Shown here piece after piece: positions 6,305-42,845 of a stretch of 64,000 nt of DNA. The stretch is from Candidatus Binatia bacterium. GTDB taxonomy: Bacteria; Chloroflexota; Dormibacteria; Aeolococcales; Aeolococcaceae. The notes under the pieces are model-generated. The model did not search any database. It saw only the letters and a list, made by a program, of their open reading frames with translations, and had not been told where the DNA came from. The translations under genes and the position numbers were made by a program. Every line of letters starts with the position of its first letter. Positions within the stretch are counted from its first letter, which is position 1. The DNA lies in NCBI GenBank assembly GCA_035624785.1, contig DASPQV010000049.1, forward strand, positions 5,731-69,730. The letters run 5' to 3'.

Positions 6305-6411
6305 CGAACGACCCTTGGCCTGCTTGACGCCGCGGGACCAGACTGGCTGTGGTACGGGACGCCCTGGTCGTGCGGTTGCTCCGCTGGGCCTCGGGGCTGT
6401 CCCGGTCGGAC

Positions 6412-8745: not shown

Positions 8746-8764
8746 GGGCTTCGCATCCGCCACT

Positions 8765-8790
8765 AGTTGTGGACGCAGCAGTCCACAACT
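8765..8790. terminator. Perfect 10-bp hairpin (agttgtggac gcagca gtccacaact) between convergent genes
   Basis: Read directly. It is noticeably AT-richer than the surrounding DNA and lies between the stop at 8745 (+) and the stop at 8796 (-). Confidence 0.55.
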
Positions 8791-8795
8791 CGCTG

Positions 8796-12745: not shown

Positions 12746-12965
12746 GGCCCGGCGGCCGCACCCGACCTGGGGTATCCTGGCGGTCCCGGTGCGCACCTCT
12801 CCCGGCTCTCCGCGCCTCCCTCCCGTGATCGCCGTCCTCGAGGGCATCCTCGCCCCGGGGCCCCGCGCCCGGCGGGCCGCCGAGACGGCGAGGCGCGCCG
12901 GCTGGGGGCGCTGAGGGGGTGTACCATCGCTTGCCGCTCGTATGAACAGCGCCTTGGAGTTTGAC

Positions 12966-13997: not shown

Positions 13998-14024
13998 CCA
14001 GCGACTCCGGGAGGGCTTGCAACC

Positions 14025-15380: not shown

Positions 15381-15381
15381 C

Positions 15382-16770
15382 GTGGCCCTGCACCATCACG
15401 AGCCGGGTGAGGCGGAGCTGGAGGTCAACCCGCTGTACGCGTCGGCCGCGGCCCGCGGCCGTGTCCCCAAGCTGCGCATCCCCGACCAGCCCATGGATCC
15501 GGAGACCGCCTACCAGATCGTCCACGACGAGCTGATGCTGGACGGGAACGCGCGGCTCAACCTGGCCACCTTCGTCACCACCTGGATGGAGCCGCAGGCC
15601 AACCGGCTCATCGTCGAGGCGCTCGACAAGAACGTCATCGACAAGGATGAGTATCCGCAGACCGCGGAGATCGAGCGGCGCTGCGTCCACATCCTCGCCT
15701 CACTCTGGCATGCGCCGCCCCGGCGGACCGCGGTCGGGTGCTCCACAACCGGTTCCAGTGAGGCGGCGATGCTGGCCGGCCTGGCGCTCAAGTGGCGCTG
15801 GCGCGAGGCCCGCCGCTCCGCCGGCGGTTCCGCCGATCGGCCCAACCTGGTGATGGGCATCAACGTCCAGGTGTGCTGGGAGAAGTTCTGCCGGTACTGG
15901 GACGTGGAGCCGCGCTTCGTGCCCATGGAGGGAGATCGGCGCCATCTCACCGGCGAGGAGGCGGTGAAGCTCTGCGACCAGGACACCATCGGGGTGGTGG
16001 CGGTGCTCGGCTCCACCCAGGACGGCAGCTACGAGCCGGTGGCCGAGATCTGCGCGGCCCTGGATGGGCTCCGAGATTGCGGCGGCCCCGACGTGCCGGT
16101 GCACGTCGATGCCGCCTCGGGGGGCTTCGTGGCCCCCTTCGTGCAGCCCCAGCTGGTCTGGGACTTCCGGCTCGACCGGGTGGCGTCCATCAACAGCTCC
16201 GGCCACAAGTACGGCCTGGTCTACCCCGGGGTGGGCTGGGTGATCTGGCGCGACCGCGAGGCCCTGCCCGAGCCGCTGATCTTCCGGGTCAACTACCTGG
16301 GCGGGAGCATGCCCACCTTTGCCCTCAACTTCTCCCGACCGGGCGCCCAGGTCATCGCCCAGTACTACAACCTCATCCGGCTCGGCTTCGAGGGTTACCG
16401 GCTGGTCCAGCAGACATCCCTGGACACCGCCCGCCACATCTCCGACGCCGTCAGCCGCATCGGTCCATTCCGGCTGCTCACCGACGGCAGCGAGCTGCCG
16501 GTGTTCGCCTTCGCGCTCCGCCCCGAGGTCGATCGCTACACCGTCTTCGACGTGTCCGACGGGCTGCGCAAGCGCGGCTGGCAGGTCCCCGCCTACCACC
16601 TGCCCCGCAACCTTCAGGCGACCGCGGTGCTCCGGGTGGTGGTGCGCAACGGGATGTCACGCGACCTCGCCGACCTGCTGATCGCCGACCTGAGGAGGGA
16701 GGTCGCCCAGCTCGACAAGCTCTCCGCTCGTCTGCCCCAGCACCCCGACCGGGCCCGCTTCCACCATTGA
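15382..16770 (+). CDS. Glutamate decarboxylase (group II PLP decarboxylase)
   Basis: NLATFVTTWMEP, DKDEYPQTAEIE, SINSSGHKYGLVYPGVGWVIWRD (PLP lysine motif). The GTG start lies 1 nt after the preceding stop. Confidence 0.9.
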   Translation: MALHHHEPGEAELEVNPLYASAAARGRVPKLRIPDQPMDPETAYQIVHDELMLDGNARLNLATFVTTWMEPQANRLIVEALDKNVIDKDEYPQTAEIERRCVHILASLWHAPPRRTAVGCSTTGSSEAAMLAGLALKWRWREARRSAGGSADRPNLVMGINVQVCWEKFCRYWDVEPRFVPMEGDRRHLTGEEAVKLCDQDTIGVVAVLGSTQDGSYEPVAEICAALDGLRDCGGPDVPVHVDAASGGFVAPFVQPQLVWDFRLDRVASINSSGHKYGLVYPGVGWVIWRDREALPEPLIFRVNYLGGSMPTFALNFSRPGAQVIAQYYNLIRLGFEGYRLVQQTSLDTARHISDAVSRIGPFRLLTDGSELPVFAFALRPEVDRYTVFDVSDGLRKRGWQVPAYHLPRNLQATAVLRVVVRNGMSRDLADLLIADLRREVAQLDKLSARLPQHPDRARFHH

Positions 16771-18757: not shown

Positions 18758-21700
18758 TCAGGGGACGGTCACGCCCTGGAGGACCGCCGGGCCCACGGTC
18801 GGGTCCAGCTCCTGCTGAACGTTGACGCCGGCCGGCGGGATGGTGTCGAGGACGTAGGGCACGCTGCCCGGGTTGAAGCCGCAGATCGCCGGCACCGGCG
18901 GTGTGGTGGCCTCCGCCGTCGAGCACACCCCGAAGTTGAAGGGTTGCGGGGTCGCCGCGAAGGTGCGAGCGTCGTCGAATCCGAAGCCGTCCTGCCCGGT
19001 CAGGGTGAGGGTGAAGGTCCAACCTGCCCAGGCCGAGGCGGCGGTCGACGCCGGGGCTCCCAGGGTCGATGCGGGCACGGTGATGGTGACGATCCCGGGC
19101 GTGTCACCTCCGGAGGGGGTCAGCTGGGCGGCCGAGACCGCTGGCGTGCCGATGCCGCCGCCGCAGTTGGGGTAGCTCCAGGTGAGGCCCGAGGTCGTCG
19201 ACGACGGGGTCACCCAGCAGTCGCCGCCGAAGCCGTCCACCTCGATGACCTGGTTCCAGGCGTCCGCCGCCGCGATGGAGTAGTTGAAGGGACTGGCCGC
19301 GGCCGTCGATTGGACTTCGCCGGTGGGGACCTGACCGCTGGGAGCGTGGATGTAGAGGTCGAACAGCTGGGCGCCGTCGAGGCTGCCGAAGGTCGGCACC
19401 AGGTTCTCGATGCCCACCCGGAAGCTGACGGTGGTGCCGGAGTCGATCACCGTCAACCCGGTCAGGCGGAAGGAGTCGGGCGAGAAGTTGGAGCTCGTCG
19501 GGTACGCGTAGACCCCGGTGGGCTGCGTGTACGGCGAGTAACCGGGCCCGTTGCCGCCGCCCGGGGCGGCGGGCACGTTGAGGATCACCGTGCCGGGGAT
19601 GAACAGGTTGTTGACTGCGAAGATGGCCTCGTCGGTGGCGCTGCCCGCGGTCGCCGCCACCTCGATGGAGTTGCTCCCCGGCTCCAGGGCGACCGAGGTC
19701 GAGAAGGCGCCGCCGCCGTCCGCGCTCACCGTGGTGATCGTGGTGGTCGGCGTCGACGCCCCGGCCGCCGTCCCGGTGATCGCGATGTCGACGGTCGCGC
19801 CCGCCGCCGTGCTGCCGCTGACCACCGTCGAGGCGGAGTTGACCGTCACCGACGGGCGGGTGAGGTTGATCGGGACGTCCCGCCCGTTGACGGCCAGCGG
19901 TGACGACACGGCGAGCGCCGCGGTCGCGGGTGGGGCGGGCAGGTAGCGCTCGGCGACGATGCTCGGCTGGTCGAGCAGGGTGCCGCTCTGGATGTCGCGG
20001 AGCAGCCGGAGGAGCTGCGCCTGGGCCCAGGTCAGCGGTGCCGCTGAGCCGTCGGGCTTGCCGTCGATCAAGCCGATGGACGCCGTGGTCGGGTCGGAGC
20101 CGTAGGCCGAGGCGGCCAGGTCCGGGAAGTTCCAGACCTGCTCGGGCATGAGACCGACGCCGCTTGCCGAGTTGAGCATGAAGTCGAGATCCGACTGCAG
20201 CGCCGCCGGGTTGCCGGCCAGCAGCTGGTACTCCGCGTTCTCCCCGGAGAGCACCGGCCAGGGGTGCCCGGTGCCGGTGTCGGTGGTCGCCCAGGGCTCG
20301 CCGGTGAGCGGGCAGTTGGCGTTGGCCGCGACCTCGACCGCGCCCGTGTCGCAGTCGCCATAGCCGTCGCCGTTGTAGCGCATGATCCCGGTCCCGGATG
20401 GCGTCGAGGAGTCGATGGCGCTCGCGGCCACCGCCAGGGAGTTGCTGACGGTGGGATCGGACGCCGGCAGCTCGCCGAGCCGGGTCAGCTCGAGGAACCC
20501 CTGGTCGATCACGCTGCGCTGGTCCACCGGGCTGGTGTTGCCGTTGTTGAGGGTGTAGGTCACGCCGGCCTGGTCAGGGTTTCCGGTCTTGTCCAGGCGC
20601 ATGAAGTAGGAGCTGGACGAGAGCGGCCCGTCAGTGGTGATGCCGGTGGTCAGGATCAGCTGGCGGAAGTCGTCGGCGGTGGCCAGGAAGAGGCGCTGCG
20701 ATGCGGTGTCGCCCTGCACCCCGGCGATCGCGGCAGCGGCCACCAGGCCGGCAACCTCATCGGCCATGGTGGAGGGCGAGAAACCGGTCTGCTCCTCCCA
20801 GCGCTCCACGCCGTCCACCGGGCCGTTGGCGACCAGGAAGTCGGCGGCGGGCCTGATGTGATCCTGGTAGAGGGAGGCGCTGCCGGCCATTCCCGCCTGC
20901 CACGCGGCGAGGATCGGGTCCGCGGTCTCGTCGAGCTGGAGCCCGCCCGTGTCGGGTGCCGCCTCGCCGTTGAGCAGCCCGTTGCGCGGGAAGCTGCCGT
21001 CCGGCAGCTGCATGTGGTCGAACCAGTATTCGACCATCTGGCGGGCGGTGCCGATGTCACCGTCGGCCAGGAAGCCGGTGAACGTCTCGTAGGCGTCGCG
21101 GGGGAACACCTCGCGATACGACCCGAAGTAGGGAGCCAGGTCGTTGACCGGGGTCCCGGCCGAGACCGCCTGGCCCCAGGGGCTGCTCAGGGACGCGGCG
21201 GTGGCACCGACGAAGCTCTTGTCCTCGCTCGCCTTGATGACGTTGGCGGAGAGCCAGTAGGCGGCCTGGTCGGCGGGGCTGAGGGCGGTGCCGCCATGTC
21301 CGGGCGCGCCGCCCGGCGAGCAGAGCTGGGAGTCGTAGTCGAGCCACTGCCCCTGGTACTGGAGGAAGGTGGCGGCGATAGGGGCCGCCGACGCGTCGAG
21401 CGCGGACTCGAGCGCGCTGGCCTCGGTGCCGCCGAAGCCAAGGGCCACCGTCTGGCTGCTCACCGCGCTGGGACGGGGCGGGGTCGACAGCCCGGCCGCC
21501 CCGGCCGCCGCGGCCGCGATCGCCACTGGGCTGAGGCTGGTGACGCCGGTGGCGGTCGCTCCGGGAGCTATGCGGCGGGGCGAGCAGACGGATGCGCTGT
21601 CGAAGCTGCCGCCGCCGTAGGCGCCCAGGTCGCCGCCGCTCGCCCCGCCTGACGAGGCGGCCGGCGCGCCGCTGCCCAGGCTCAGCTCGACGGTCTGGAC

Positions 21701-23059
21701 CACGTTGCCAGCGCTGGCGTTCGGGGCGGTGGTGGTCAGCGAGCGAGCACTGTCCAGCTCGGCCAACCCGTCGCTGGAGCTCCCCGCGAAGCCGGTCTCC
21801 ACCGCAGCGAACGGGGAGCTGGCCGCCAGGGCCGCGTAGATCGGGGTGGCGTAGCCCCGGTTCAGCGCTTCGGTGAAGGAGTTGGTGGAGTAGGAGAGCG
21901 GGATCTGGCCGCGGCTGGTCGGGACGATGGTCGCGGACTCCGCCCCCGCATTGCCGCTGCCGCCGCCACCGTGACCGTTCAGCAGCGGGTTGAGACGCAG
22001 GTAGAGATGAAGGCCCGCGGGCGCTCCGGGGAGCGCGACCAGGCTGTACTGGATCACCACCGCCTCAGTCGAGGGATCGGTGACGAAGTCGCTGACGATC
22101 GCGAAGTGCTGGGCGGTGTCCAGGGCGATGACCCGGCAGGCCATCCCGGTCTGGCCCAGCGAGCTGACCGTGTAGGTCATGTCGCGGGGCTGGAGGGCGG
22201 TGAAGCCGGGACCGGTGACGATCGGATCCAGGGTCTTGACGTTGGTGTTGTCGATGGTGGGGGCGTAGACGTCCGACAGCTCGCCGTCGGCCACCGTGTA
22301 CCAGACCGTCGAGGCCGTGTCCGCGGCGGTGCCGACGCAATCCTTGCGCGCCTCGTCGTAGTAGGAGAGCCCACCGGGCGCGCCCCCCGCCTCGCTGCCC
22401 GGGCTGCCGATCGCGAGGTCGAAGACGTGCATCGAGGTGATGCCGCGACCGACCCCGGCGGACACGGCCGGCAGGGTCACCGATGCCACCTCCTTGGTGG
22501 GATCGAGAGGCACGGCGGCGTAGGAGAGGCTCACCGGGATCGTCCCGGCGGGGTTCCAGCCGCGGGTGGTGGCGAGGAAGTCGGTGCCGGTCGCGGCAGC
22601 GCCGTCGATCCAGTCGGCGAAGCTGAGCGACGCCGTGGAGCTGGATCCGTCCGCGTAGGTGACTGTGAAGGTGCCGCTCGCCGACCCGAACGCGGCGGCG
22701 CCCACGATCCCGAGGGTGGAGCCGCGTCCGCTCAGGGAGATGGTCTGCCCGTCGGCGACGACGTTGTCCGGGCTGCCGGGCGCGACATCGGGCCAGGTGA
22801 GACCGAGACCGTCGTGGAGCAGGCTCTCCCCGGGGGCCAGCGCATCCGCGGCCAGCCCGGGCGCGGAGAACGAGTCCCCGATGCCGTCGTAATTCCCGGC
22901 GCCGGCGCCGCCAGGCGTGGTGATGCCCACGTTGTCGAAGGCCTGCGCCAGGGAGACCCCGGTCGCGGAGGTGGTGGGGGCGGCGATCGCCATGCCCCCC
23001 ATCCCGAGCACGGCCGCGGCGACGGCCGCACGAAATCGGCGATGACGAGCACGACGCAC
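18758..23059 (-). CDS. Secreted multi-domain GH15 glucoamylase/glucodextranase-like protein (1433 aa)
   Basis: Signal peptide (RRFRAAVAAAVLGMGGMAIAAP). GH15 catalytic-domain motifs: YREVFPRDAYETF, LQLDETADPILA, GVERWEEQTGFSPST, GIMRYNGDGY, MPEQVW. The C-terminal part resembles the glucodextranase C-terminal module, and there is an additional N-terminal domain of about 230 aa. Confidence 0.8.
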   Translation of the reverse strand: MRRARHRRFRAAVAAAVLGMGGMAIAAPTTSATGVSLAQAFDNVGITTPGGAGAGNYDGIGDSFSAPGLAADALAPGESLLHDGLGLTWPDVAPGSPDNVVADGQTISLSGRGSTLGIVGAAAFGSASGTFTVTYADGSSSTASLSFADWIDGAAATGTDFLATTRGWNPAGTIPVSLSYAAVPLDPTKEVASVTLPAVSAGVGRGITSMHVFDLAIGSPGSEAGGAPGGLSYYDEARKDCVGTAADTASTVWYTVADGELSDVYAPTIDNTNVKTLDPIVTGPGFTALQPRDMTYTVSSLGQTGMACRVIALDTAQHFAIVSDFVTDPSTEAVVIQYSLVALPGAPAGLHLYLRLNPLLNGHGGGGSGNAGAESATIVPTSRGQIPLSYSTNSFTEALNRGYATPIYAALAASSPFAAVETGFAGSSSDGLAELDSARSLTTTAPNASAGNVVQTVELSLGSGAPAASSGGASGGDLGAYGGGSFDSASVCSPRRIAPGATATGVTSLSPVAIAAAAAGAAGLSTPPRPSAVSSQTVALGFGGTEASALESALDASAAPIAATFLQYQGQWLDYDSQLCSPGGAPGHGGTALSPADQAAYWLSANVIKASEDKSFVGATAASLSSPWGQAVSAGTPVNDLAPYFGSYREVFPRDAYETFTGFLADGDIGTARQMVEYWFDHMQLPDGSFPRNGLLNGEAAPDTGGLQLDETADPILAAWQAGMAGSASLYQDHIRPAADFLVANGPVDGVERWEEQTGFSPSTMADEVAGLVAAAAIAGVQGDTASQRLFLATADDFRQLILTTGITTDGPLSSSSYFMRLDKTGNPDQAGVTYTLNNGNTSPVDQRSVIDQGFLELTRLGELPASDPTVSNSLAVAASAIDSSTPSGTGIMRYNGDGYGDCDTGAVEVAANANCPLTGEPWATTDTGTGHPWPVLSGENAEYQLLAGNPAALQSDLDFMLNSASGVGLMPEQVWNFPDLAASAYGSDPTTASIGLIDGKPDGSAAPLTWAQAQLLRLLRDIQSGTLLDQPSIVAERYLPAPPATAALAVSSPLAVNGRDVPINLTRPSVTVNSASTVVSGSTAAGATVDIAITGTAAGASTPTTTITTVSADGGGAFSTSVALEPGSNSIEVAATAGSATDEAIFAVNNLFIPGTVILNVPAAPGGGNGPGYSPYTQPTGVYAYPTSSNFSPDSFRLTGLTVIDSGTTVSFRVGIENLVPTFGSLDGAQLFDLYIHAPSGQVPTGEVQSTAAASPFNYSIAAADAWNQVIEVDGFGGDCWVTPSSTTSGLTWSYPNCGGGIGTPAVSAAQLTPSGGDTPGIVTITVPASTLGAPASTAASAWAGWTFTLTLTGQDGFGFDDARTFAATPQPFNFGVCSTAEATTPPVPAICGFNPGSVPYVLDTIPPAGVNVQQELDPTVGPAVLQGVTVP

Positions 23060-26368: not shown

Positions 26369-28696
26369 ATGCAGAGGATGGGCGCGCGATCCGGCTCGAC
26401 AGCGGTGGGGCAGGCTCGCCCCACCCCGGTCACGGAGCCGGGGATCGGCGCCGGCCACCTGCGGCTGGCGATCACCGGCATGAGCTGCGCGGCCTGCGTC
26501 CGCCGCGTGGAGCGGGCGCTCTCCGGGGTCGACGGGGTTGGCTCGGCCAGCGTCAACCTGGCGACCGAGACCGCCGAGGTGACCGTCACCGCACCGGTGC
26601 CGGCCAGCCGGCTGGTCTCGGCGGTGGCCGGTGCCGGCTACGCCGCCGAGCTGATCCCTGAAGCGCGGACGGTGGGCGAGCAGGCCGTGGAGCGCCGGGT
26701 CCGCCGGCGCGCCGAGGTGTCGGCTCGGGTCAGCAGGCTGGCGGCGGGGGCGGCTCTCAGCACCGCCGTCCTGGTGCTTGGCTACGGCTTCAGCGGATCA
26801 CCATGGTCCCCCTGGGCCCAGCTGGGTCTCGCCCTCCCGGTGTGGCTGTGGGTCGGCGCCGGCTTCCACCGCGGGGCGCTGTCGGCGGCCCGGCACGGCG
26901 CCGCCACCATGGACACCCTGGTCTCGCTCGGGTCGAGCGTTGCCTTCCTCTACTCGGCGGTGGCCACTCTCGCCCTGCCCGGGCGCAGCCTCTATTTCGA
27001 CGTCGCCTGCCTGGTGGTCACGCTGATCAGCATCGGCAAGCTGATGGAGCTGGTGGCGCGCGGTCGAGCCAGCGAGGCCATCGAGTCGCTCGCCGAGCTC
27101 CAGCCGCGGGTGGCTCACCTGCTGGCCCGGGGGGCCTCCGCGGAGCGCTGGGCGGGCACCGCGCCGGTCGACGTGCCGGTCGAATCGCTCCGGATCGGTG
27201 ACGTGGTCCAGGTCCGCCCGGGGGAGCGGATCCCCAGCGACGGGGTGGTCCTGGCCGGCCGCGGTGCCGTCGATGAATCGATGCTCACCGGCGAGAGCCT
27301 GCCGGTCTCCAGGGGCCCCGGCGCCCAGGTGGTCGGTGCCACCGTCAATGCCCAGGTGGCGCTGGTGGTGCGGGTCGCCAAGGTCGGCGCCGAGACGGTG
27401 CTCGCCCAGGTCATGGCCCTGGTCGACCGGGCGCAGCGGGAGAAGGCGCCGATGCAACGGCTGGCCGACCGGGTCTCCGGCGTGTTCGTGCCGGTCATCG
27501 TGGTGCTCGCCGTGGCGACCTTCGCCGGCTGGATGCTGGCCGGCCGGGACCCGGTGGCGGCCATCTCTCCGGCGGTGGCCGTGCTGGTGGTGGCCTGCCC
27601 CTGCGCGCTCGGCCTCGCCACCCCCGTCGCGGTCATGGTGGGGAGCGGCCGGGGAGCGGAGATGGGTCTGCTGATCCGGGGTGGAGATGCCCTGGAGAGG
27701 GTTCGCACCCTCCGCGTCGTGGTCCTCGACAAGACCGGCACCCTGACCGTCGGCCAGCCCGCGGTCGTGGAGGTCGTCCCGGTGGGGTCGAGTGACGGAC
27801 GCCGGGCCCTGAGGCTGGCCGCCGCAGTCGAGCAGGCGTCCGAGCATCCCCTGGCCCGGGCCGTCGTGGACGCGGTGCCCGCGGAGAGCCGTCTGGCTCC
27901 CGCCAGCGAGATGGAGGCGGTGCCCGGCGGTGGCGTCCGCGGCCGGGTCGGTGCCCTCGAGGTCAGCGTCGGCTCCCTGTCGTGGCTTCGGGAGAGCGGC
28001 GTGGACCTGGGCGATGCCGAGAGCAGCGCGGCGACGGCGGCGTTCGGGGGACGCACCCCGTTCGCGGTCGCGGTCGGGGGCCGGCTCGAGGCGGTGATCC
28101 TGGTGGCCGATCCCCTCCGCCCGGGGAGCGGCGCCGGTGTCGAGCGCCTCCGGGCCCTGGGCCTGGAGGTCGTCCTGGCCACCGGTGACCTGCCCGGCAC
28201 GGCCACCGCGATCGCCCGCCAGGTCGGCATCGCCGACGTCCGGGCTCAGCTGCGGCCCGCCGACAAGATGGCCCTGATCGGCGAGCTGCGATCCCAGCGC
28301 GGGCCGGTGGGCATGGTCGGCGACGGCATCAACGACGCCCCTGCCCTGGCGCTGGCCGACGTCGGCATCGCCATGGCCAGCGGGACCGGCGTCGCCATGG
28401 CGGCCGCGGACATCACCCTGGTCCACGGCGACGTCGAGGCGGTGAGCCGCGCCATCAGCCTCTCCCGAGCCACCCTCAGGACCATCCGCGAGAATCTCGC
28501 CTGGGCATTCGGCTACAACCTGGTCCTGGTGCCGCTCGCTGCGATCGGCATCCTGCCTCCGGTGGCCGCCGCCCTGGCGATGGCGCTCAGCTCGGTGAGC
28601 GTCGTCCTCAACGCCCTGCGGCTGCGCCGTTTCGGCCGGGGCGCGCCGGCCCCACCCCGAGCGGCCCGGCCCATCCCGGATCCCAGCTCCGCATGA
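26369..28696 (+). CDS. copA: Copper-translocating P1B-type ATPase
   Basis: N-terminal HMA domain [21 protein letters not shown], the CPC motif ([12 protein letters not shown]), DKTGTLT, and [10 protein letters not shown]. An alternative start is ATG 26378. Confidence 0.9.
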
Positions 28697-28706
28697 GGAG
28701 ACATCG

Positions 28707-28916
28707 ATGCCAGAGATAACGCTGCTGGCCCCCGACATCAGCTGCGAGCACTGCAAGCGGACCATCGAGACGGAGATGGGCACCCTGGCCGGTGTCGCCG
28801 CGGTGGACGTCGACCCGCCCGGCCGGACGGTGAGGGTCACCTACGATGAGGCGCGGGTCACGGAGAGTGCCATCCGAGCCCGCCTCGACCAGATCGGCTA
28901 CCCGGCGGCACGCTGA
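28707..28916 (+). CDS. copZ: Heavy-metal-associated (CopZ-like) metallochaperone
   Basis: A 69-aa ferredoxin-like HMA protein with the variant metal motif ISCEHC (CxxC). It sits immediately after copA. Confidence 0.75.
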   Translation: MPEITLLAPDISCEHCKRTIETEMGTLAGVAAVDVDPPGRTVRVTYDEARVTESAIRARLDQIGYPAAR

Positions 28917-28925
28917 GGCGATGGC

Positions 28926-29204
28926 ATGAGTGCACCCGGCTACTCCCAGGACAAGGCCTCGCTCCAGGCTCGGCTGGCCCGCATCGAGGGCCAGGTGCGC
29001 GGTCTTCGGCGGATGCTCGACGAGGAGCGCTACTGCATCGACGTGCTCACCCAGGTGACCGCGGTCAAGGCCGCCCTGGACCGGGTCGCTCTGGCCCTGC
29101 TCCACGACCATGTCAGCCACTGCGTGGTGGACGCCGTGCGTGAGGGCGGCGGCGACGAGAAGGTGAGCGAGCTGACCGCCGCCATCGGCCGCTACGTGAG
29201 CTGA
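28926..29204 (+). CDS. csoR: CsoR/RcnR-family metal-sensing repressor
   Basis: Family signature LARIEGQVRGLRRM, ERYCIDVLTQ (Cys), and HDHVSHC (His/Cys ligands), i.e. the C-H-C Cu(I) pattern. Confidence 0.85.
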   Translation: MSAPGYSQDKASLQARLARIEGQVRGLRRMLDEERYCIDVLTQVTAVKAALDRVALALLHDHVSHCVVDAVREGGGDEKVSELTAAIGRYVS

Positions 29205-29218
29205 CGGGGCGGCACCGG

Positions 29219-29836
29219 GTGAGCGGCTCCGGGCCCGCCGGCCCCGAGGTCATGGAGCTGCTCGATTGGCGCCGGCGCATCCGCGACCTGTACGCGGCGG
29301 TGCGGGCTGAGACTGATCCGCGGCGGGCATTCCGGCTCTGGTGCGAAACCCGCCGCGAGCTGTTCGGGTCGCATCCCCAGTCGCCCCTCCCGGAGGATCG
29401 GCGCAGCGCGATCCCCCGCTACTACCCCTACGACCCGGCGCTGCGGACCACCGCCCGGGTCTCGCCCGCGTCACCGGTGGAGATCGCGCTGCCCGGGAGC
29501 GGAGGCCAGGGCTTCCCGGCGCGGCGCTTCGGTGTCGCCGGCTTCGAGCTGCTGGGTCAGGCCTGCGAGCTCAGCCTCTTCTGGCTGCTCGACTACGCAG
29601 GAGGGCTCCTGGTGGCGTTCCGCGACGCCACCACGGGAACCGAGACCTACGGGGGCGGACGCTACCTGCTGGACACCGCCAAGGGAGCGGACCTGGGCGG
29701 CGGCATGGAAGCGCTGCGCCTCGATTTCAACCTTGCCTACCAGCCGAGCTGCGCCTACGACCCACACTGGAGTTGCCCGCTGCCCCCGCCCGGCAGCACC
29801 CTGCCGCTGGCGATCCGGGCCGGGGAGCGGCTCTGA
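29219..29836 (+). CDS. DUF1684 domain protein
   Basis: C-terminal signature GTETYGGGRYLLD...LDFNLAYQPSCAYDPHWSCPLPPPGSTLPLAIRAGE. The start is GTG 29219 or ATG 29252. Confidence 0.7.
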   Translation: MSGSGPAGPEVMELLDWRRRIRDLYAAVRAETDPRRAFRLWCETRRELFGSHPQSPLPEDRRSAIPRYYPYDPALRTTARVSPASPVEIALPGSGGQGFPARRFGVAGFELLGQACELSLFWLLDYAGGLLVAFRDATTGTETYGGGRYLLDTAKGADLGGGMEALRLDFNLAYQPSCAYDPHWSCPLPPPGSTLPLAIRAGERL

Positions 29837-29843
29837 GCCCGGG

Positions 29844-31112
29844 TCAGCCTGCGCCGGCCAGCACCCCGGGCTGGGTCTTGGCGGGTGGGACGCCGCCCTT
29901 CGCCGGGGTCGCCGCGGGATCCTTGAGGCGGGCGATCAGCGCGGCGTTGATCACCAGCAGCAGCACGCTGAGGAGCAGGGGGAGGGTGAATGTCCCGCCC
30001 ACCTTCAGTGCCTCCATCAGGTAGACGATGGCCACCGAGCACTGGCCGACCAGCTGGAGCAGGCCCTGGGAGGTGCCCTCGGGGGTCGGCTGGGTGACCT
30101 CTGCCACGTACTCCATCCCGATCGGCCCCACGCAGATCAGGAAGAAGCCGAACTCGAACGCGGCGACGTAGAGCAGCCACGCCATGGACTCGGGGGCGAA
30201 GGTCATGCCCAGGAGGCCGGGGATGGCGAGCACGAAGCCGATCAGCATGTAGCGCACCCGGCGCCGGCTGCGATCGGAGAGCGCCGCCATGGTGACGCTG
30301 CCCACCACCCCTCCCAGGAGCACCAGCGCGCCGGCCAGGCCGGCCTCGTCCGACGAGAACTTCCGCGGGCTCAGGATGTCGTCGATCCAGGTGAGCACGC
30401 CGTTGAAGATGCCCATGCCCAGGAACCAGACCAGCATGTAGACGAGGAAGGGCCGCACCCGCACGGCGTGGCGCAGACCGTCGAGCATCAGGGCCCGCAC
30501 CTCCATCTCGGGTGCGCAGGGCGGGGTCCGGGGATGCTCCCGGGCCACGGCCACGAAGACCACCGCGGAGAGCATGGCCACCGCGCCGTAGACGAGCTGG
30601 ACCGTCCCGATCGAGCCGGGGCTGGAGACCAGCGCCGGGGTCAGCGCCTCGCCCAGGCCGATGCCCACCAGCATGGCCAGGGTGATCAGCGCGACCCCGG
30701 TGGCCCGCTCGGTCGGCGCCATCCAGTTGGCCGGGAACTTGGTCCAGGCGTTGAGCAGGAAGGGCTGGGCGATCGCGATCCCCACGGTGGCGGCGACCGC
30801 GCCCCCGTAGCTGGGTCCGGCCAGACCGCGGGCGATCCCGCACACCCCCATCAGCATCGCGCCGGCCCCGACCGCGAAGTGGAAGCCCTTGGTGTCGATG
30901 AGCCACGCCGCCGGGAGGGAGAAGGGGATGAACAGGATCATGAAGAGCATCGCGAGCAGCCCGACCTGGAGGTCGGAGGCGTGGAAGTACGTGCCCGCCT
31001 GGCTGCTGACCGAGGCGTAGCTGATCCAGAGCACCTGGATGGTCAGGTTCACGAACATGAAGGCGCCCAGGACCGCCCAGCGATACCCGTAGACCCGGTA
31101 GCTCCGATCCAT
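29844..31112 (-). CDS. MFS transporter (about 12 TM segments)
   Basis: Starts at MDRSYRVYGYRWAVLGAFMFVNL and is hydrophobic throughout. The 763-aa track ORF is an upstream extension running antisense to the RLP gene. Confidence 0.8.
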   Translation of the reverse strand: MDRSYRVYGYRWAVLGAFMFVNLTIQVLWISYASVSSQAGTYFHASDLQVGLLAMLFMILFIPFSLPAAWLIDTKGFHFAVGAGAMLMGVCGIARGLAGPSYGGAVAATVGIAIAQPFLLNAWTKFPANWMAPTERATGVALITLAMLVGIGLGEALTPALVSSPGSIGTVQLVYGAVAMLSAVVFVAVAREHPRTPPCAPEMEVRALMLDGLRHAVRVRPFLVYMLVWFLGMGIFNGVLTWIDDILSPRKFSSDEAGLAGALVLLGGVVGSVTMAALSDRSRRRVRYMLIGFVLAIPGLLGMTFAPESMAWLLYVAAFEFGFFLICVGPIGMEYVAEVTQPTPEGTSQGLLQLVGQCSVAIVYLMEALKVGGTFTLPLLLSVLLLVINAALIARLKDPAATPAKGGVPPAKTQPGVLAGAG

Positions 31113-31265
31113 CTCACTCTCCCGCTGCAATGGCTCGGAGTGTGGCCAGGCTTTCAGCCTGCGCCAAGGGTCCTTCGGCCCAAGCCTGGCAATGCCCTCG
31201 CCTCTGGTCCGGCTGGAGCGGTGGGACCCATGCTGCGGTCGACCGGGCGGTGCTCGCCCGGCGGC

Positions 31266-32594
31266 ATGCCGAGGGTGGTCATGGACGACCTCAAGTTGCT
31301 TTCCCAGCCCGTGGCTCTGCCTGAGGGTGTCGACCCCGACGAGTACGTCGTGGGCACGTACCTCATCTCGTTCCCGGCGGCCATCCCGGTCCCCAAGCTG
31401 GCCCCGGCGCTGGCCATCGAGCAGAGCACCGGCACCTGGGTGCCGGTCCCCGGCGAGACCCCGGAGGTCAGGGTCAAGCACATCGCCAAGGTGATCGGGG
31501 TCTACGAGGTCCCCGATGCCGAGTTCCCCGAGCCGTACATTGCCGAGGGGAGCCGCGAGTACATCGTCCAGGTGGCCTTCCCCGAGGTGAACTTCGGGCC
31601 CCAGATACCGATGCTCCTGACCACCGTGGTGGGCAACATCTCGATGGGCGGCCGGGTCAAGCTGGTCGACCTCCGCCTGCCCGAGCGGTACGTGGCCGGC
31701 TTCGGCGGTCCCAGGTTCGGGATCGAGGGGGTCCGCAAGCTGCTCGGGGTGAGCGGCCGGCCGCTGCTCAACAACATGATCAAGCCCTGCACCGGCTACC
31801 CGGTGGAGGCGGGCGTCGCCCTCTTCTACCAGGCCGCGCTCGGTGGCTGCGACATCATCAAGGACGACGAGCTGCTCGCCGACGCCTCCTTCAACTCGGT
31901 GACCGACCGGGTGACCCGCTACATGGAGATGGAGCGGCGGGCCTTCGAGGAGACCGGGGAGCACACCCTCTACACGGTGAACGTCACCGACTCGGTGCCC
32001 AAGGTGTTCGACAACGCGCACCACGCGATCGAGGCCGGGGCCAACGCCATCATGGTCAACTACCTGGCGGTCGGACTCCCCGTGCTCCAGGCCCTCGCCG
32101 AGGACAGCACCATCAACGTCCCGGTCCTGGCCCACATGGACGTGGCCGGAGCCCTGTACATGTCACCCTGGCACGGGATCAGCTCGCACCTGGTGCTCGG
32201 CAAGTTCCCGCGGCTGGCCGGCGCCGACGTGGTGGTGGTCCCGGCTCCCTACGGCAAGGCGCCGGTGCTTCCCGAGAGGTTCCAGAACGTCGTCAAGAAC
32301 CTGGTGTTCCCCTTCTACGGCAAGCGCCCGACCTTCCCCATGCCCTCCGGCGGGATCACCCCGTCGATGGTTCCCAAGATCATCGGCGACCTGGGCTGCG
32401 ACATCGTGATCGGGTCGGGTGGTGGCATTCATGCGCACCCTCAGGGCCCGGCGGCGGGGGCGAGAGCGTTCCGCCAGGCCATCGACGCCGCGGTCGGCGG
32501 GGTCTCGCTGCAGGACGCCGCCAAGGAGCACCCCGAGCTGGCGGCCTCGCTGGAGCGCTGGGTCGACCCGTTCAGCAAGGGGATCGGGCTGTAG
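31266..32594 (+). CDS. RuBisCO large-subunit-like protein (form IV RLP), not a carboxylase
   Basis: RuBisCO fold motifs VVGN, GRPLLNNMIKPCTG (canonical KPKLG has its second Lys replaced by Cys), GGCDIIKDDE (carbamate Lys plus metal ligands kept), PVLAHMDVAG (canonical HRAMH lost), PSGGITP, and GSGGGIHAHPQG. Confidence 0.85.
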   Translation: MPRVVMDDLKLLSQPVALPEGVDPDEYVVGTYLISFPAAIPVPKLAPALAIEQSTGTWVPVPGETPEVRVKHIAKVIGVYEVPDAEFPEPYIAEGSREYIVQVAFPEVNFGPQIPMLLTTVVGNISMGGRVKLVDLRLPERYVAGFGGPRFGIEGVRKLLGVSGRPLLNNMIKPCTGYPVEAGVALFYQAALGGCDIIKDDELLADASFNSVTDRVTRYMEMERRAFEETGEHTLYTVNVTDSVPKVFDNAHHAIEAGANAIMVNYLAVGLPVLQALAEDSTINVPVLAHMDVAGALYMSPWHGISSHLVLGKFPRLAGADVVVVPAPYGKAPVLPERFQNVVKNLVFPFYGKRPTFPMPSGGITPSMVPKIIGDLGCDIVIGSGGGIHAHPQGPAAGARAFRQAIDAAVGGVSLQDAAKEHPELAASLERWVDPFSKGIGL

Positions 32595-32607
32595 CCGCCT
32601 GACCCCG

Positions 32608-32639
32608 GGCCCGGTCACCGCGATCACGGTGGCCGGGCC
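32608..32639 (+). terminator. 13-bp stem hairpin (one G-U pair) just after the RLP stop
   Basis: ggcccggtcaccg cgatca cggtggccgggcc, read directly. There is no U-tract. Confidence 0.35.
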
Positions 32640-32771
32640 GGCTCCGCTGCACCTCGACTTCCGGCTCCCCAGGTATCGGGGCGGATCGAGCCGGCGCTGC
32701 CGGGTGTCCACGCCACGCTGACCGGCCGCCGAGCGAGCTCAGGACAGCCTTCCCGGCGCTGAGCGACAAAG

Positions 32772-32844
32772 TGCCGAGGGCCAGAATCGAACTGGCGACA
32801 CCGGGTTTTTCAGACCCGTGCTCTACCAACTGAGCTACCTCGGC
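32772..32844 (-). tRNA. tRNA-Phe (anticodon GAA). CCA is not encoded.
   Basis: The reverse complement reads GCCGAGGTAGCTCAGTTGGTAGAGCACGGGTCTGAAAAACCCGGTGTCGCCAGTTCGATTCTGGCCCTCGGCA. It forms a cloverleaf with a 7-bp acceptor stem, a D-loop AGCTCAGTTGGTAGAGC, the anticodon loop CTGAAAA and a T-loop GGTTCGATTC-like sequence. Confidence 0.92.
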
Positions 32845-38964: not shown

Positions 38965-41487
38965 GTGGCAGGCCTGCCCGCCCCTGGGGCCACCCTCAGG
39001 CATCCCTCCACCGGGGAGCGGATCGCCGAGCTTCGGGCCAGGCCATGGGTGAGTGGACGGATCGTCCACGAAACCACGATCCCGGCGCGGCCGGCCCAGC
39101 TGTGCCCCTGGCCGGAGCGCCTTCATCCTGAGCTGCACCAGGCGCTCCGAGGCCGGGGCCTCGACCGCGCCTACTCGCACCAGGCCCTGGCCATCGAGGC
39201 CGCCCTGGCCGGCGAGGACGTCACCCTGGTGACCCCGACCGCCAGCGGCAAGACGCTGGGCTTCGTGCTCCCGGTCCTCGACGCCTGGCTGCGCGACCCG
39301 GACAGCCGCGCCCTCTGGCTGTTCCCGACCAAGGCGCTGGCCCAGGACCAGCTGGCCGGCCTGCGCGACCTCACCGAGCGCCTGCCCGCCGAGAGGCGTG
39401 AGCTTCTCCGGGCCGCGACCTTCGACGGGGACACGCCGACCGGGCTCCGCCGGGCCATCCGCGAGGACGGCCACATCGTGGTCACCAACCCCGACATGCT
39501 GCATGCCGGGATCCTGCCCAACCACACCGGCTGGGCGAGGCTGCTGCGATCGCTGCGCTACGTCGTCATCGACGAGCTGCATGCCTACCGCGGTCTCTTC
39601 GGTTCTCATCTCGCCAACGTGCTGCGCCGGCTCTTCCGGATCTGCCGCTTCTACGGCAGCACCCCGACGGTGATCTGCTGCTCGGCCACGATCGGCAACC
39701 CCGGGGAGCTCGCCGAGCGGCTGCTGGAGCGGCCGGTTAGGCTCGTCGACCGGAGCGGCGCGCCGCAGGCCGAGCGGCACCTCTGGTTCTGGGCCCCGCC
39801 GCTGGCCAGCGGCACCATGGGGATCCGCCGTTCGGCCGTCCTGGAAGCCCGGCGCCTGATGGCTGAGCTGCTCCGCCTGGATCTCCAGACCATCGGCTTC
39901 TGCCAGAGCCGGAGCTCGGTCGAGGTCCTGCTCAGCTACCTCCGCCAGCTGCATCCGAGCGGCCCCGGCGAGGCGGAGCCGGTGCGCGGCTACCGAGGCG
40001 GTTACCTGCCCCTCGAGCGCCGGGCCATCGAGGCGGGGCTGCGTTCCGGGAGCGTCCGCGCCGTCGTCGCCACCAACGCCCTGGAGCTGGGCATCGACAT
40101 CGGCGGGCTGGACGCCTCGGTCCTGGTCGGCTACCCGGGGACCCTGGCCAGCACCTGGCAGCAGCTGGGCAGGGCAGGACGCCGCGACGCCGCCTCCCTG
40201 GGTGTGTTCATCGCCTCGGATGCCCCGCTCGACCAGTTCCTCCTGCGCCACCCCGAATACCTTCTGGAGACGCCGCCCGAGCGGGGCCTGGTGGATCCCG
40301 ACAACCTCCTCGTCCTGGGGTCGCACCTCCAGGCCGCGGCATTCGAGCTCGCCTTCGAGGTGGGCGAGAGCTTCGGGCGGGCCGGTGACGGGCTTACCGG
40401 CTCTCTTCTCGAGTGCTTCGCCGCCGACGGTCTGGTGCATCGCACCGCCAGCCGCTACCACTGGTCCGCCGACGCCTTCCCCGCCGAGGCGATCTCGCTG
40501 CGCCGGGCGGCGGCCAGCAACGTGGTCATCATCGACACCTCCAGCGATCCGGCGGGCCCGGGGCAGGGCCCGCAGGGCCCCTGGGCGGGGAGCGGCGGGG
40601 GCCGCCCCGGCAGCCACGGACGGGTCATCGGCGAGACCGACCAGTTCTCGGCCCCGGTGCTGGTGCACGACGACGCCATCTACCTCCACGAGGGCCGCCA
40701 GTACCACGTCGAGCGCCTCGACTGGGAGGAGAAGCGTGCCTACGTCCACCCGGTCTCGGTGGATCACTACACGCTCGCCGAGACCAGGCAGACCTTGCGG
40801 GTGCTGGAGCGTTTCGCCGGTCCGGTCGGTGCCCGGGCGCGGCGCAGCCACGGCGAGGTCCGGGTCAGCCGGCTGGCCACCGTCTACAAGAAGGTCCGCT
40901 TTCTCACCCATGAGAACGTGGGATCGGGGCCGATCCACCTGCCCGAGCAGGACCTGCACACGACCGCGGTCTGGGTCGCGATCCCGCCCGAGGCCCTGAC
41001 GGCGCTGCCCCCGGCCGACCTGCTCACCGGGCTGACCGGGGCATCGCGCGCCCTCCACGCCGCCGCGTGCCTGCTCTGCATGTGCGATCCCCGGGACCTG
41101 GGCACCCACGTGGAGCCGCGCGGCCAATCCGGTCCGGGGTTGCACCCGGGTGGGGGGCGCGGGAGCGGGTCCCCGTCCGCGCTGGTGCCGCCGCCGCCCG
41201 CCGAGCCCCAGGAGTTCGCGGCCGGCTGGCGGCCGGAGGTCGAGCCGGTGCCCGGCGCCAGTGCGGAGGCGGGCTGGCCGGCCCTCTATCTCTATGACGC
41301 CACGCCCGGCGGTGTCGGCTTCGCGGAGGGTTGCTTCGAGAGCTTCGGCGACCTGGTGACCTCGGCCCTCGAGCTGGCCGCGGGCTGCTCGTGCGCGGCC
41401 GGGTGTCCCTCGTGCGTCGGGCCTCCGCCGGCCGGGACCGACGCCAGGGCGGCGGCGGCGGCGGTTCTCCGGGCGTTGGCCGACTGA
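38965..41487 (+). CDS. DEAD/DEAH-box helicase with a C-terminal DUF1998/MZB zinc-binding domain (MrfA/YprA-like)
   Basis: Motif I PTASGKT, motif II VIDELH, motif III SAT, helicase C (VVATNALELGIDIG), and the C-terminal four-Cys cluster CSCAAGCPSC. GTG start. Confidence 0.85.
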   Translation: MAGLPAPGATLRHPSTGERIAELRARPWVSGRIVHETTIPARPAQLCPWPERLHPELHQALRGRGLDRAYSHQALAIEAALAGEDVTLVTPTASGKTLGFVLPVLDAWLRDPDSRALWLFPTKALAQDQLAGLRDLTERLPAERRELLRAATFDGDTPTGLRRAIREDGHIVVTNPDMLHAGILPNHTGWARLLRSLRYVVIDELHAYRGLFGSHLANVLRRLFRICRFYGSTPTVICCSATIGNPGELAERLLERPVRLVDRSGAPQAERHLWFWAPPLASGTMGIRRSAVLEARRLMAELLRLDLQTIGFCQSRSSVEVLLSYLRQLHPSGPGEAEPVRGYRGGYLPLERRAIEAGLRSGSVRAVVATNALELGIDIGGLDASVLVGYPGTLASTWQQLGRAGRRDAASLGVFIASDAPLDQFLLRHPEYLLETPPERGLVDPDNLLVLGSHLQAAAFELAFEVGESFGRAGDGLTGSLLECFAADGLVHRTASRYHWSADAFPAEAISLRRAAASNVVIIDTSSDPAGPGQGPQGPWAGSGGGRPGSHGRVIGETDQFSAPVLVHDDAIYLHEGRQYHVERLDWEEKRAYVHPVSVDHYTLAETRQTLRVLERFAGPVGARARRSHGEVRVSRLATVYKKVRFLTHENVGSGPIHLPEQDLHTTAVWVAIPPEALTALPPADLLTGLTGASRALHAAACLLCMCDPRDLGTHVEPRGQSGPGLHPGGGRGSGSPSALVPPPPAEPQEFAAGWRPEVEPVPGASAEAGWPALYLYDATPGGVGFAEGCFESFGDLVTSALELAAGCSCAAGCPSCVGPPPAGTDARAAAAAVLRALAD

Positions 41488-42845
41488 TGCCCGCGGCCGA
41501 GCTGGCGGGAGGCACGGGGGGAAGCCTGGCCCTCGCCGACCTGCGACGGCGGCTGGCCGCCATGGGCGGCCTGGCCGACCTCTCGCGTCCGGCGCCGCCG
41601 CGGCCGCGCCCCGCCCCCGTGGAGAGCCCGGTCAGCCGGGCCGGCCGGCTCGGCTTCGTTGCCGACGCCGCCACCCTGGTGCGCCGGGTGAAGGTGGACC
41701 TCGGCCCTTTCCTGGAGCGGGCCGGCGCCCCCGGACCGGCAACTGCTGAGCAGCTGGTACGCCTTCTATTCCGGCTGCCCGCCGCGGCTCCGGCGGGTCC
41801 CTTCGGTGAAGCGGACCTGGCGGTGCTCGACATCGAGACGCTCGGCCTCCGGGGCAGCGGGGTGGTGCCGTTCCTGGTGGGGGTCGGGGTGCCCCGCGGC
41901 TCGAGCGTCGAGATCGACCAGTGGCTGCTCGCCGACCTCGAGGCAGAGCCGGCGATGCTCGACGCCATCGCCGCCCGCCTGGCCAGCCGCCGGCTGCTGC
42001 TCACCTACAACGGACGGTGCTTCGACCTGCCGGTCCTCCAGGCGCGCTGCATCCTCAACCGGCGCTCTCCCGAGGCGGTCGCCCCGCCCATCCACTGCGA
42101 CCTCCTGGGCCCGGTGCGACGGCTCTTCCGGGCTCGTCTCGGCGCCTGCACGCTGCGCCAGGCGGAGGTCTGCCTGCTCGGGCTGGAACGGGTTGACGAC
42201 GTCCCCGGGGCGGAGGCGCCCGCCCGATTCCGGGCCTGGCTGGGCGGGGCGCCGGCGAGCGTCCTCGAGGGGGTGGTCCGGCACAACCAGCTCGACCTCT
42301 GCGCCACCCTGGTGCTGGCGGCCCGCGTGGCAGCCCACGCCGCCGGCGACCTGATCCGCCCGGTGCATCCGGCGGACCGCTACCGGCTCGCGGTTCACCT
42401 GGCGGCCCTGGGGATGGAGGATGCCGCCGAGGCGCAGCTCACCTCAGCCTTCGGCGATCGAGCCTCGCCCTGGGCCCAGGCAGCTGGGCACCGGCTTGCC
42501 CGTTTCCGCCGTCGCGGCGCCTGGCCCGCCGCGCTCCCTGTCCTTGCCGAGCTGTGGCGGCGGGACCCCGCGGACCTCGCCGCGGCCCGCGGCCTTGCCA
42601 TCACGCTGGAGCGGGACGGTGACATCGGGGGCGCACTCAGGGTCTGCCTGGAGGCGGAGCGCGTGCTCGGCGCCCGGGCCCTCTGGCGGCGCCGGCTCGC
42701 GGTCGTGCCGGATGCGAGGGTCAGCCGGTCCGAGGACGAGTGGCGGCGGCGGGGTGCGCGGCTGCGCCGCCGGGCAGCGCGCCAGGGACCGATCCTGCTC
42801 ACGGGTCTCGAGCCGGCCGCTGACCGCGGGTCGGGGGCCGCCTGA
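41487..42845 (+). CDS. RNase H-fold DEDDh 3'-5' exonuclease with a helical/TPR-like C-terminus (MrfB/YprB-like)
   Basis: The ATG shares 1 nt with the helicase stop (TGATG). Motifs: LDIETLG (Exo I), TYNGRCFDLPVL (Exo II), HNQLDL (Exo III). The 504-aa track ORF is an upstream extension. Confidence 0.7.
   Translation: MPAAELAGGTGGSLALADLRRRLAAMGGLADLSRPAPPRPRPAPVESPVSRAGRLGFVADAATLVRRVKVDLGPFLERAGAPGPATAEQLVRLLFRLPAAAPAGPFGEADLAVLDIETLGLRGSGVVPFLVGVGVPRGSSVEIDQWLLADLEAEPAMLDAIAARLASRRLLLTYNGRCFDLPVLQARCILNRRSPEAVAPPIHCDLLGPVRRLFRARLGACTLRQAEVCLLGLERVDDVPGAEAPARFRAWLGGAPASVLEGVVRHNQLDLCATLVLAARVAAHAAGDLIRPVHPADRYRLAVHLAALGMEDAAEAQLTSAFGDRASPWAQAAGHRLARFRRRGAWPAALPVLAELWRRDPADLAAARGLAITLERDGDIGGALRVCLEAERVLGARALWRRRLAVVPDARVSRSEDEWRRRGARLRRRAARQGPILLTGLEPAADRGSGAA

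Follow-up and report, generated by a model that had tools for sequence, protein, structure and literature searches.

A 64,000-nucleotide stretch of Candidatus Binatia bacterium DNA (GenBank assembly GCA_035624785.1, contig DASPQV010000049.1, positions 5,731 to 69,730 of the forward strand; hereafter the window) encodes a RuBisCO-like protein (RLP) of form IV type. From comparison with its relatives, the gene is best explained as encoding a presumably functional member of a distinct RLP family. Its genomic context is best explained as a pathway cassette in which the RLP is accompanied by an MFS transporter, an FGGY (xylulokinase-like) kinase and a pyridoxal phosphate (PLP)-dependent class-III aminotransferase. 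Judged by its predicted active site, the protein is neither a carboxylase of ribulose 1,5-bisphosphate (RuBP) nor an MtnW enolase. On balance, we favor a Mg2+/carbamate-dependent enolizing isomerase that would act on the ketose monophosphate which the FGGY kinase is proposed to produce. The RLP clade to which the protein belongs combines a distinctive active-site signature with a distinctive conserved gene context.

31281..32594, + strand: RuBisCO-like protein (RLP), form IV type (Pfam, NCBIfam, PDB, homolog lengths, active-site table, Foldseek)

The RLP open reading frame (ORF) is intact, ends with a stop at 32594 and has a coding-type GC content at third codon positions. Its product has 437 amino acids (aa) if translation starts at ATG 31281 and 442 aa if it starts at ATG 31266. 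Because ATG 31281 is preceded by a GAGGG Shine-Dalgarno sequence and homologs are 434–437 aa long, it is the more likely start. The initial annotation of this DNA described a 442-aa protein separated by 153 nucleotides (nt) from a divergent MFS gene; both values hold for ATG 31266, with the gap widening to 168 nt at the likely start, but the end it gave, 32639, overshoots the stop by 45 nt. In Pfam, the protein is matched by RuBisCO_large (PF00016, 3e-46) and RuBisCO_large_N (PF02788, 1e-8), the two-domain arrangement of the superfamily, in which an N-terminal alpha/beta domain precedes a C-terminal TIM barrel. Solved RLPs align with it end to end, the best PDB match being Geobacillus MtnW (2OEK, E 6e-90), and an AlphaFold model of moderate confidence (predicted local distance difference test score 73) superimposes in Foldseek on 2OEK, 1TEL and 2D69 with template-modeling scores of ~0.8.

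Active-site residues were tabulated from an alignment of 120 family members with the sequences of three MtnW structures, taken from HMMER alignments, and with spinach RbcL, whose numbering is used here (the reference is identical to PDB 1IR1/8RUC at 475/475 positions). In RuBisCO, the ligands of the C1 phosphate of the substrate (the P1 site) are T65, G381, G403 and G404, those of the distal C5 phosphate (the P2 site) are R295, H298 and H327, and E60, N123 and K334 serve the CO2-addition step; the role of the carbamate as a base belongs to established RuBisCO and RLP enzymology. By analogy, we infer that the P1 and P2 positions and the carbamate would have corresponding roles in the RLP family. 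The motifs IIKDDE, IKPCTG and AHMDVAG and the Gly-rich loops (PSGGI, GSGGG) to which the initial annotation had drawn attention are all present. Across the family, E60, T65, W66, N123, K175, K201, D203, E204, H294 and K334 are invariant in 120/120 members, as are the P1-loop glycines G380, G381, G403 and G404, while S379 is found in 117/120. The superfamily core, K201-D203-E204 with K175 and H294 (IIKDDE, IKP, AH), is present in every one of the 120, and the comparison shows an intact catalytic core.

The departures from RuBisCO are equally uniform. K177C, R295M and H327V occur in 120/120 members and T173M and H298A in 119/120, in agreement with the proposal that this is a form-IV-type protein and would not be a RuBP carboxylase. 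Beside the former P2 pocket, the family has an invariant, family-specific Asp at position 296 (AHMD), whose negative charge would disfavor a second phosphate. The complete active site of RuBisCO forms I–III, whose conservation would by the initial annotation's own criterion have refuted its proposal, is absent, with M295, A298, V327, C177 and M173 in its place, yet 15 of the 20 canonical residues are retained, against 10–11 in MtnW, a closer approach to RuBisCO than had been assumed. The Lys-to-Cys change at position 177, which had been singled out for attention, is of little diagnostic value: MtnW has M (2OEK), V (2ZVI) or C (4NAS) there, and Cys is invariant in the RLP family. The more telling feature, missed by the initial annotation, is the retention of E60, N123 and K334. 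At these positions MtnW has G60, K123 (the general base Lys98 in Geobacillus numbering) and S334, whereas the RLP family has the RuBisCO residue at all three; position 123 is Asn in 120/120 members and Lys in 2OEK, 2ZVI, 3FK4 and 4NAS. This pattern of residues points to a substrate with one phosphate, to RuBisCO-like chemistry at the carbonyl and to a pocket remodeled for the other end of the substrate.

Every curated family cut-off is missed by the protein. The two NCBIfam equivalog models used for MtnW, NF007095 and TIGR03332, rank highest but remain below threshold (380.1 against 409 bits and 345.1 against 513.6), followed by the form III model (260 against 497), the PRK04208 model (241 against 438) and the OiaX model (196 against 700). 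In a search of 1.84 billion representatives clustered at 50% identity, the representative of the family itself matched at 57%, surrounding relatives at 44–49%, MtnW-type proteins at ~35–40% and proteins with form III-type signatures at ~34–43%; none of the neighboring representatives clears a curated model. In a neighbor-joining tree with 100 bootstrap replicates, the RLP family is monophyletic (100/100), the YkrW core clade excludes it (100/100), and the family and YkrW together stand apart from forms III and I (100/100). Clear membership of the YkrW enolase clade, which the initial annotation had named, together with mtn genes elsewhere, as one finding that would overturn its proposal, is absent. 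From these sequences, the family appears to be an RLP clade of its own, so far without a name, that is placed in the tree on the side of YkrW. A wider superclade sharing E60/N123/K334 received a bootstrap value of only 19% and is not claimed. Family members are 67–82% identical among metagenome-assembled genomes (MAGs) of Actinomycetota, Chloroflexota, Acidobacteriota, Calditrichota and Cryosericota, the MAG labels being Acidimicrobiales, Anaerolineae, Dehalococcoidia, Thermoflexales, Calditrichaeota, Acidobacteria, Cryosericum and Actinomycetota. On one Dehalococcoidia contig (DAOTVU010000021.1), two RLP copies lie in opposite orientation ~7 kb apart, an arrangement due either to inverted duplication or to an artefact of the assembly.

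The genomic context of the family was examined in 82 non-redundant loci; carriers of the cassette include MAGs labeled Thermoflexus sp. (L013) and Longilinea sp. (L083). Neighbors within 8 kb of the RLP gene were counted in the 55 loci whose flanks extend for 2 kb or more on each side:

53/55 loci: FGGY kinase, usually directly upstream of the RLP gene and on the same strand
47/55 loci: any of the two aminotransferase types or the saccharopine-dehydrogenase-like gene
19/55 loci: saccharopine-dehydrogenase-like oxidoreductase
14/55 loci: HemL-like class-III aminotransferase
14/55 loci: second type of class-III aminotransferase
8/55 loci: MFS transporter
4/55 loci: class-II aldolase domain

The genomic link of the RLP family to the FGGY kinase is obligatory and that to an amine-transfer or saccharopine-dehydrogenase-type enzyme frequent, while the links to the MFS transporter and to the class-II aldolase/epimerase-like domain are occasional. 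In some lineages, the aminotransferase carries the class-II aldolase/epimerase-like domain; elsewhere it is replaced by the saccharopine-dehydrogenase-like oxidoreductase or by the different class-III aminotransferase. Conservation of the MFS–RLP pair, a check suggested with the original proposal, is accordingly limited to a small minority of loci. In some Anaerolineae loci, the FGGY kinase and RLP genes are separated by a gap; in the one looked at closely, two small reverse-strand ORFs (8674..9464, − strand of locus L010) occupy the gap and are read, from their sequence, as a probable inserted toxin-antitoxin-like pair and not as a pathway gene. Several further loci have a gap of ~1–1.5 kb in this position.

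Two loci are especially close to the window. In L087, whose RLP is 82% identical, an MFS and an aminotransferase gene are divergent from the RLP and FGGY genes; in L086 (RLP 79% identical), the fusion, MFS, RLP and FGGY genes follow one another on a single strand. Orthologs of all four genes are present in the window:

29844..31112, − strand: MFS transporter of 422 aa, divergent from the RLP gene (Pfam MFS_1, 5e-28; orthologs in relatives' cassettes)
4676..6232, − strand: FGGY-family (xylulokinase-like) sugar kinase of 518 aa (Pfam FGGY_N and FGGY_C)
6412..8745, + strand: fusion of a class-II aldolase/epimerase-like domain to a HemL-like class-III (PLP) aminotransferase (Pfam Aldolase_II and Aminotran_3)

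The window MFS is 69% identical to that of L087, 59% to that of L086 and 55–57% to those of two further loci (L055 and L070). The aminotransferases of L086 and L087 are 76–81% identical to that of the window (81% for L087, over the aminotransferase half), and an Acidimicrobiales locus (L001) contains, divergent from its RLP gene, a fusion gene 66% identical to that of the window over its full length. For the kinase, identity is 64% in both L086 and L087 and 46–55% in Chloroflexota loci. Because L086 and L087 carry orthologs of the four window genes contiguously, the RLP is not an orphan with the MFS transporter as its sole partner, as had been thought. In the window itself the cassette is not contiguous: it consists of two divergent gene pairs 21.1 kb apart, with the kinase and fusion genes 21–25 kb upstream of the RLP gene. 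The earlier statement that no kinase gene is nearby is correct within a few kilobases, but it overlooked the FGGY gene at 4676..6232. The intervening 21.1 kb hold two-component systems, a diamine-type aminotransferase/decarboxylase operon, a GH15 protein and copA-csoR.

The window FGGY kinase scores 307 bits against the NCBIfam XylB model, below the cut-off of 380. The fusion gene, whose ORF is open from 6349 with a likely start at ATG 6412, has glutamate-1-semialdehyde aminomutase as the best NCBIfam and PDB match of its aminotransferase half, below cut-off. Its aldolase domain scores 127 bits as an L-ribulose-5-phosphate 4-epimerase/ribulose-1-phosphate (Ru1P) aldolase and 77–83 as MtnB, again all below cut-off. 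A second, distinct FGGY type occurs in L055, L070 and L001, with 44–46% mutual identity and 32–38% identity to the RLP-adjacent type; it adjoins the MFS gene in L055 and L070 and comes after the RLP and MFS genes in L001. This second type is absent from the window.

The two divergent intergenic regions of the window share a 15-mer:

31113..31280, no strand assigned: MFS–RLP divergent intergenic region, with the 15-mer GCCAAGGGTCCTTCG at 31163..31177 (sequence comparison)
6305..6319, − strand: second copy, GCCAAGGGTCGTTCG, in the divergent intergenic DNA that separates the FGGY kinase gene from the fusion gene (sequence comparison)

The copies differ at one mismatch (consensus GCCAAGGGTC(C/G)TTCG), and, with up to 2 mismatches allowed, the window has no matches other than these two, one in each divergent promoter region, an arrangement with a shuffle p of ~0.013–0.018. 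A search of relatives that allowed up to 3 mismatches did not recover the element, and because it is not conserved there we keep it only as a weak hint of what might be co-regulation through a shared operator. Consensus promoters and terminators were looked for and none was found, and an Rfam scan returned tRNA only, with no riboswitch or RNA regulator.

In the pathway that we propose, a sugar-like compound would be imported by the MFS transporter, the presumed importer of the pathway substrate. This compound would be made into, or would already be, a free ketose, the aminotransferase or dehydrogenase supplying or consuming a carbonyl, and the ketose would receive a single phosphate from the FGGY kinase. 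The RLP would hold this phosphate in the retained P1 site (T65, W66, G381, G403, G404), and the unphosphorylated tail of the substrate would lie in the place of the old P2 site, against M295/A298/V327 and the family-specific D296. With Mg2+ bound at carbamylated K201, D203 and E204, the enzyme would take the proton next to the carbonyl, as in RuBisCO-type enolization. Reprotonation of the enediolate would then give an isomer, through carbonyl migration or epimerization, which could pass into central metabolism or to the amine-transfer step. The order of these steps is one that we infer. A precedent is the DeepYkr RLP of Rhodospirillum rubrum (PDB 3QFW), which is a 5-methylthioribulose-1-phosphate 1,3-isomerase (PMC6302742). 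Its carbonyl migration on a ketose-1-phosphate through enediolate intermediates serves as the mechanistic model for the reaction proposed here. Unlike that enzyme, however, the window RLP has no cupin methylsulfurylase or mtn context that could be found, and the two proteins are distant (113 bits, E 1e-31, rank 30th in the PDB search).

Several observations weigh against an isomerase working in such a cassette. Strict retention of E60, N123 and K334 would be needless for a simple isomerase and would fit carboxyl chemistry better. The distance of 21–25 kb between the RLP gene and the kinase and fusion genes weakens the case for co-regulation in the window, and the shared 15-mer is weakly significant (p ~0.015) besides not being conserved in relatives. 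An MFS gene accompanies the RLP gene in just 8 of the 55 loci, and one peat metatranscriptome gave no usable signal for the pair, a small contig falling on the MFS gene and none on the RLP gene. Finally, the direction of the pathway could be either catabolic or biosynthetic.

The alternative that survives best, although we consider it unlikely, is carboxyl-group chemistry, in which a beta-keto acid intermediate of a ketose monophosphate would be carboxylated, decarboxylated or split by hydrolysis by the RLP. The enzyme would thereby use partial reactions of RuBisCO, as do the apiose-pathway RLPs OiaX and OiaT, with the FGGY kinase as the analog of phosphoribulokinase (PRK). The residues that serve CO2 addition, hydration and cleavage (E60, N123, K334, H294 and K175) are invariant in 120/120 members; E60, N123 and K334 are lost from MtnW enolases and retained by an OiaX-like group (P0212; best NCBIfam match OiaX, 524 bits), and conservation of at least 70% across phyla suggests a demanding reaction. 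Like OiaX, a 3-oxo-isoapionate-4-phosphate decarboxylase, the RLP would follow a dedicated kinase and receive a monophosphorylated sugar derivative. The partner kinase of OiaX is DUF1537; unlike OiaX, OiaT and the tetronate-pathway RLPs, the family studied here is partnered by FGGY, and its score with the OiaX equivalog model (196 bits) falls far below the 700 required. OiaX-like proteins also differ in keeping R295 and H327 and in having F66, S177 and W298. Moreover, T173, K177 and H327 are replaced in the RLP family, the cassette is without a carbonic anhydrase, an acid-sugar kinase (DUF1537) or an acid-sugar dehydrogenase, and retained residues are no proof of use. A related and slightly less probable reading takes the family to be a RuBisCO-type C–C bond enzyme, whether a carboxylase or a decarboxylating or cleaving enzyme, acting on the ketose monophosphate from its own FGGY kinase. 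It follows from the completeness of the set for enolization and CO2 addition (K175, carbamylated K201 (KCX201), H294, K334, E60, N123), the distal phosphate pocket alone being changed. Were it true, the family would stand, in function, midway from RLPs to true RuBisCO.

An equally doubtful alternative is a divergent, isofunctional MtnW-type tautomerase in a variant salvage of 5-methylthioribose or 5-deoxyribose, in which an FGGY ketose kinase, an MtnB-like dehydratase of the class-II aldolase fold, the RLP as "enolase" and a final aminotransferase would lead to methionine. The YkrW/MtnW 2,3-diketo-5-methylthiopentyl-1-phosphate enolases (Geobacillus 2OEK, Bacillus subtilis 2ZVI and Alicyclobacillus 4NAS) are indeed the closest solved and curated relatives, with 36–39% identity over the full length (39% to 2OEK; 380 bits). 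They share with the RLP family K175, KCX201, D203, E204, H294, the P1 glycine loops and a non-basic P2 site, hydrophobic M/A/V in the family compared with P/S/L in MtnW, and act on a monophosphate, as is presumed for the family. The enzyme types of the cassette (kinase, class-II aldolase fold, RLP, aminotransferase) are also those of salvage, and JGI labels family members as this enolase. In contrast to MtnW, however, the family has Asn for the catalytic Lys98 in 120/120 members, Glu for Gly at 60 and Lys for Ser at 334; it misses both MtnW equivalog cut-offs and falls outside the YkrW core in every bootstrap replicate. Its context is an FGGY kinase and a class-III aminotransferase instead of mtnK/A/B/X/D, and, as the initial annotation stated, methionine-salvage genes are lacking: no MtnK, MtnA, MtnB, MtnX or MtnD family was detected among the ~48 genes of the window, nor was a SAM riboswitch detected by Rfam. 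The aldolase domain, found near the RLP gene in 4/55 loci only, is nearer to the epimerase and Ru1P aldolase (127 bits) than to MtnB (77–83 bits).

The possibility that the RLP works alone or with the adjacent MFS transporter only, the distal FGGY and fusion genes being functionally unrelated paralogs, gains from the 21 kb of unrelated genes between the two pairs. We regard it as very improbable. The contiguous cassette of L086 and L087 finds its closest matches in these four genes, at 59–82% identity; the FGGY gene, the only one in the window, is closer to RLP-adjacent kinases (46–64%) than to the second FGGY type (36%); and the 15-mer is common to the two divergent promoter regions only.

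Form III RuBisCO (Thermococcus 1GEH, Pyrococcus 2CWX) has the same fold as the RLP and shares with the family E60, T65, W66, N123, K175, K201, D203, E204, H294, K334, S379 and the Gly loops, and some form III systems are likewise coupled to a dedicated enzyme that makes the phosphorylated substrate. In contrast, identity is only ~30–32%, and R295, H298, H327, K177 and T173 are missing from the family, which would leave no site for a second phosphate. That the gene might encode a bona fide RuBP carboxylase of a divergent form III can hardly be entertained, despite the 15/20 active-site residues kept (including K175, K201, K334, N123 and E60), in view of the replacement of the P2 ligands, K177 and T173 in 119–120 of 120 members, a position with RLPs and away from forms III and I in 100/100 bootstraps, a form III score of 260 bits against a cut-off of 497, and a window (~48 genes) in which no PRK, DUF1537, ribose-1,5-bisphosphate isomerase or AMP phosphorylase gene was found.

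These comparisons bear on existing annotation. JGI labels family members "2,3-diketo-5-methylthiopentyl-1-phosphate enolase", and some NCBI records call them "ribulose 1,5-bisphosphate carboxylase"; the absence of the Lys98 base argues against the first label and that of the P2 site against the second. Because active site and context argue against both, metabolic reconstructions relying on either label would be misled. Functions have been assigned for few RLP clades, and the present family is found in MAGs of Chloroflexota, Actinomycetota and others from peat and other environmental metagenomes. That an FGGY kinase and an amine-handling enzyme are its constant partners provides a concrete and testable pathway hypothesis, and the CO2-addition residues that it keeps make it suited to asking by what route carboxylation emerged from RLP chemistry or degenerated into it. 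A literature search, which did not extend to the key RLP enzymology papers, found no paper linking an RLP with an FGGY kinase or a class-III aminotransferase. In a 2026 survey of the superfamily, RLPs were collapsed into an outgroup.

All sampled words of the 64-kb stretch are present in a DNA run of a peat metagenome. The GC contents of the RLP (0.686) and MFS (0.701) genes are slightly below that of the window (0.723), and a tRNA-Phe (GAA) gene (32771..32844, − strand) lies 177 nt past the RLP stop; the tRNA adjacency and lower GC might mark a point of rearrangement or insertion. An integrase and flanking repeats, as expected of a horizontally acquired island, were looked for around the RLP and MFS genes and none was seen.

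Between the two halves of the cassette, a three-gene operon (12942..16770, + strand) encodes a 2,4-diaminopentanoate-dehydrogenase-like protein, a class-III aminotransferase and a PLP-dependent decarboxylase and looks like a diamine or diaminobutyrate-type pathway. Farther on, a gene (18758..23011, − strand) encodes an unusually long glucodextranase-like protein of 1417 aa that combines Glucodextran_N and GH15 with a C-terminal, SLH-like binding module. A copper-resistance module (26405..29204, + strand) lies directly upstream of the MFS/RLP pair and consists of a CopA-type P1B ATPase (26405..28696), which carries an HMA domain, and a CsoR/RicR-type copper-sensing repressor (28926..29204); csoR is covered by contigs of the peat metatranscriptome. 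A DUF1684 protein gene (29219..29836, + strand) ends 7 nt from the end of the convergent MFS gene. Beyond the RLP gene, a DEAD-box helicase that carries an MrfA Zn-binding domain is followed by an RNase-H-superfamily protein (39049..42845, + strand), an arrangement that resembles the MrfA/MrfB DNA-repair pair.

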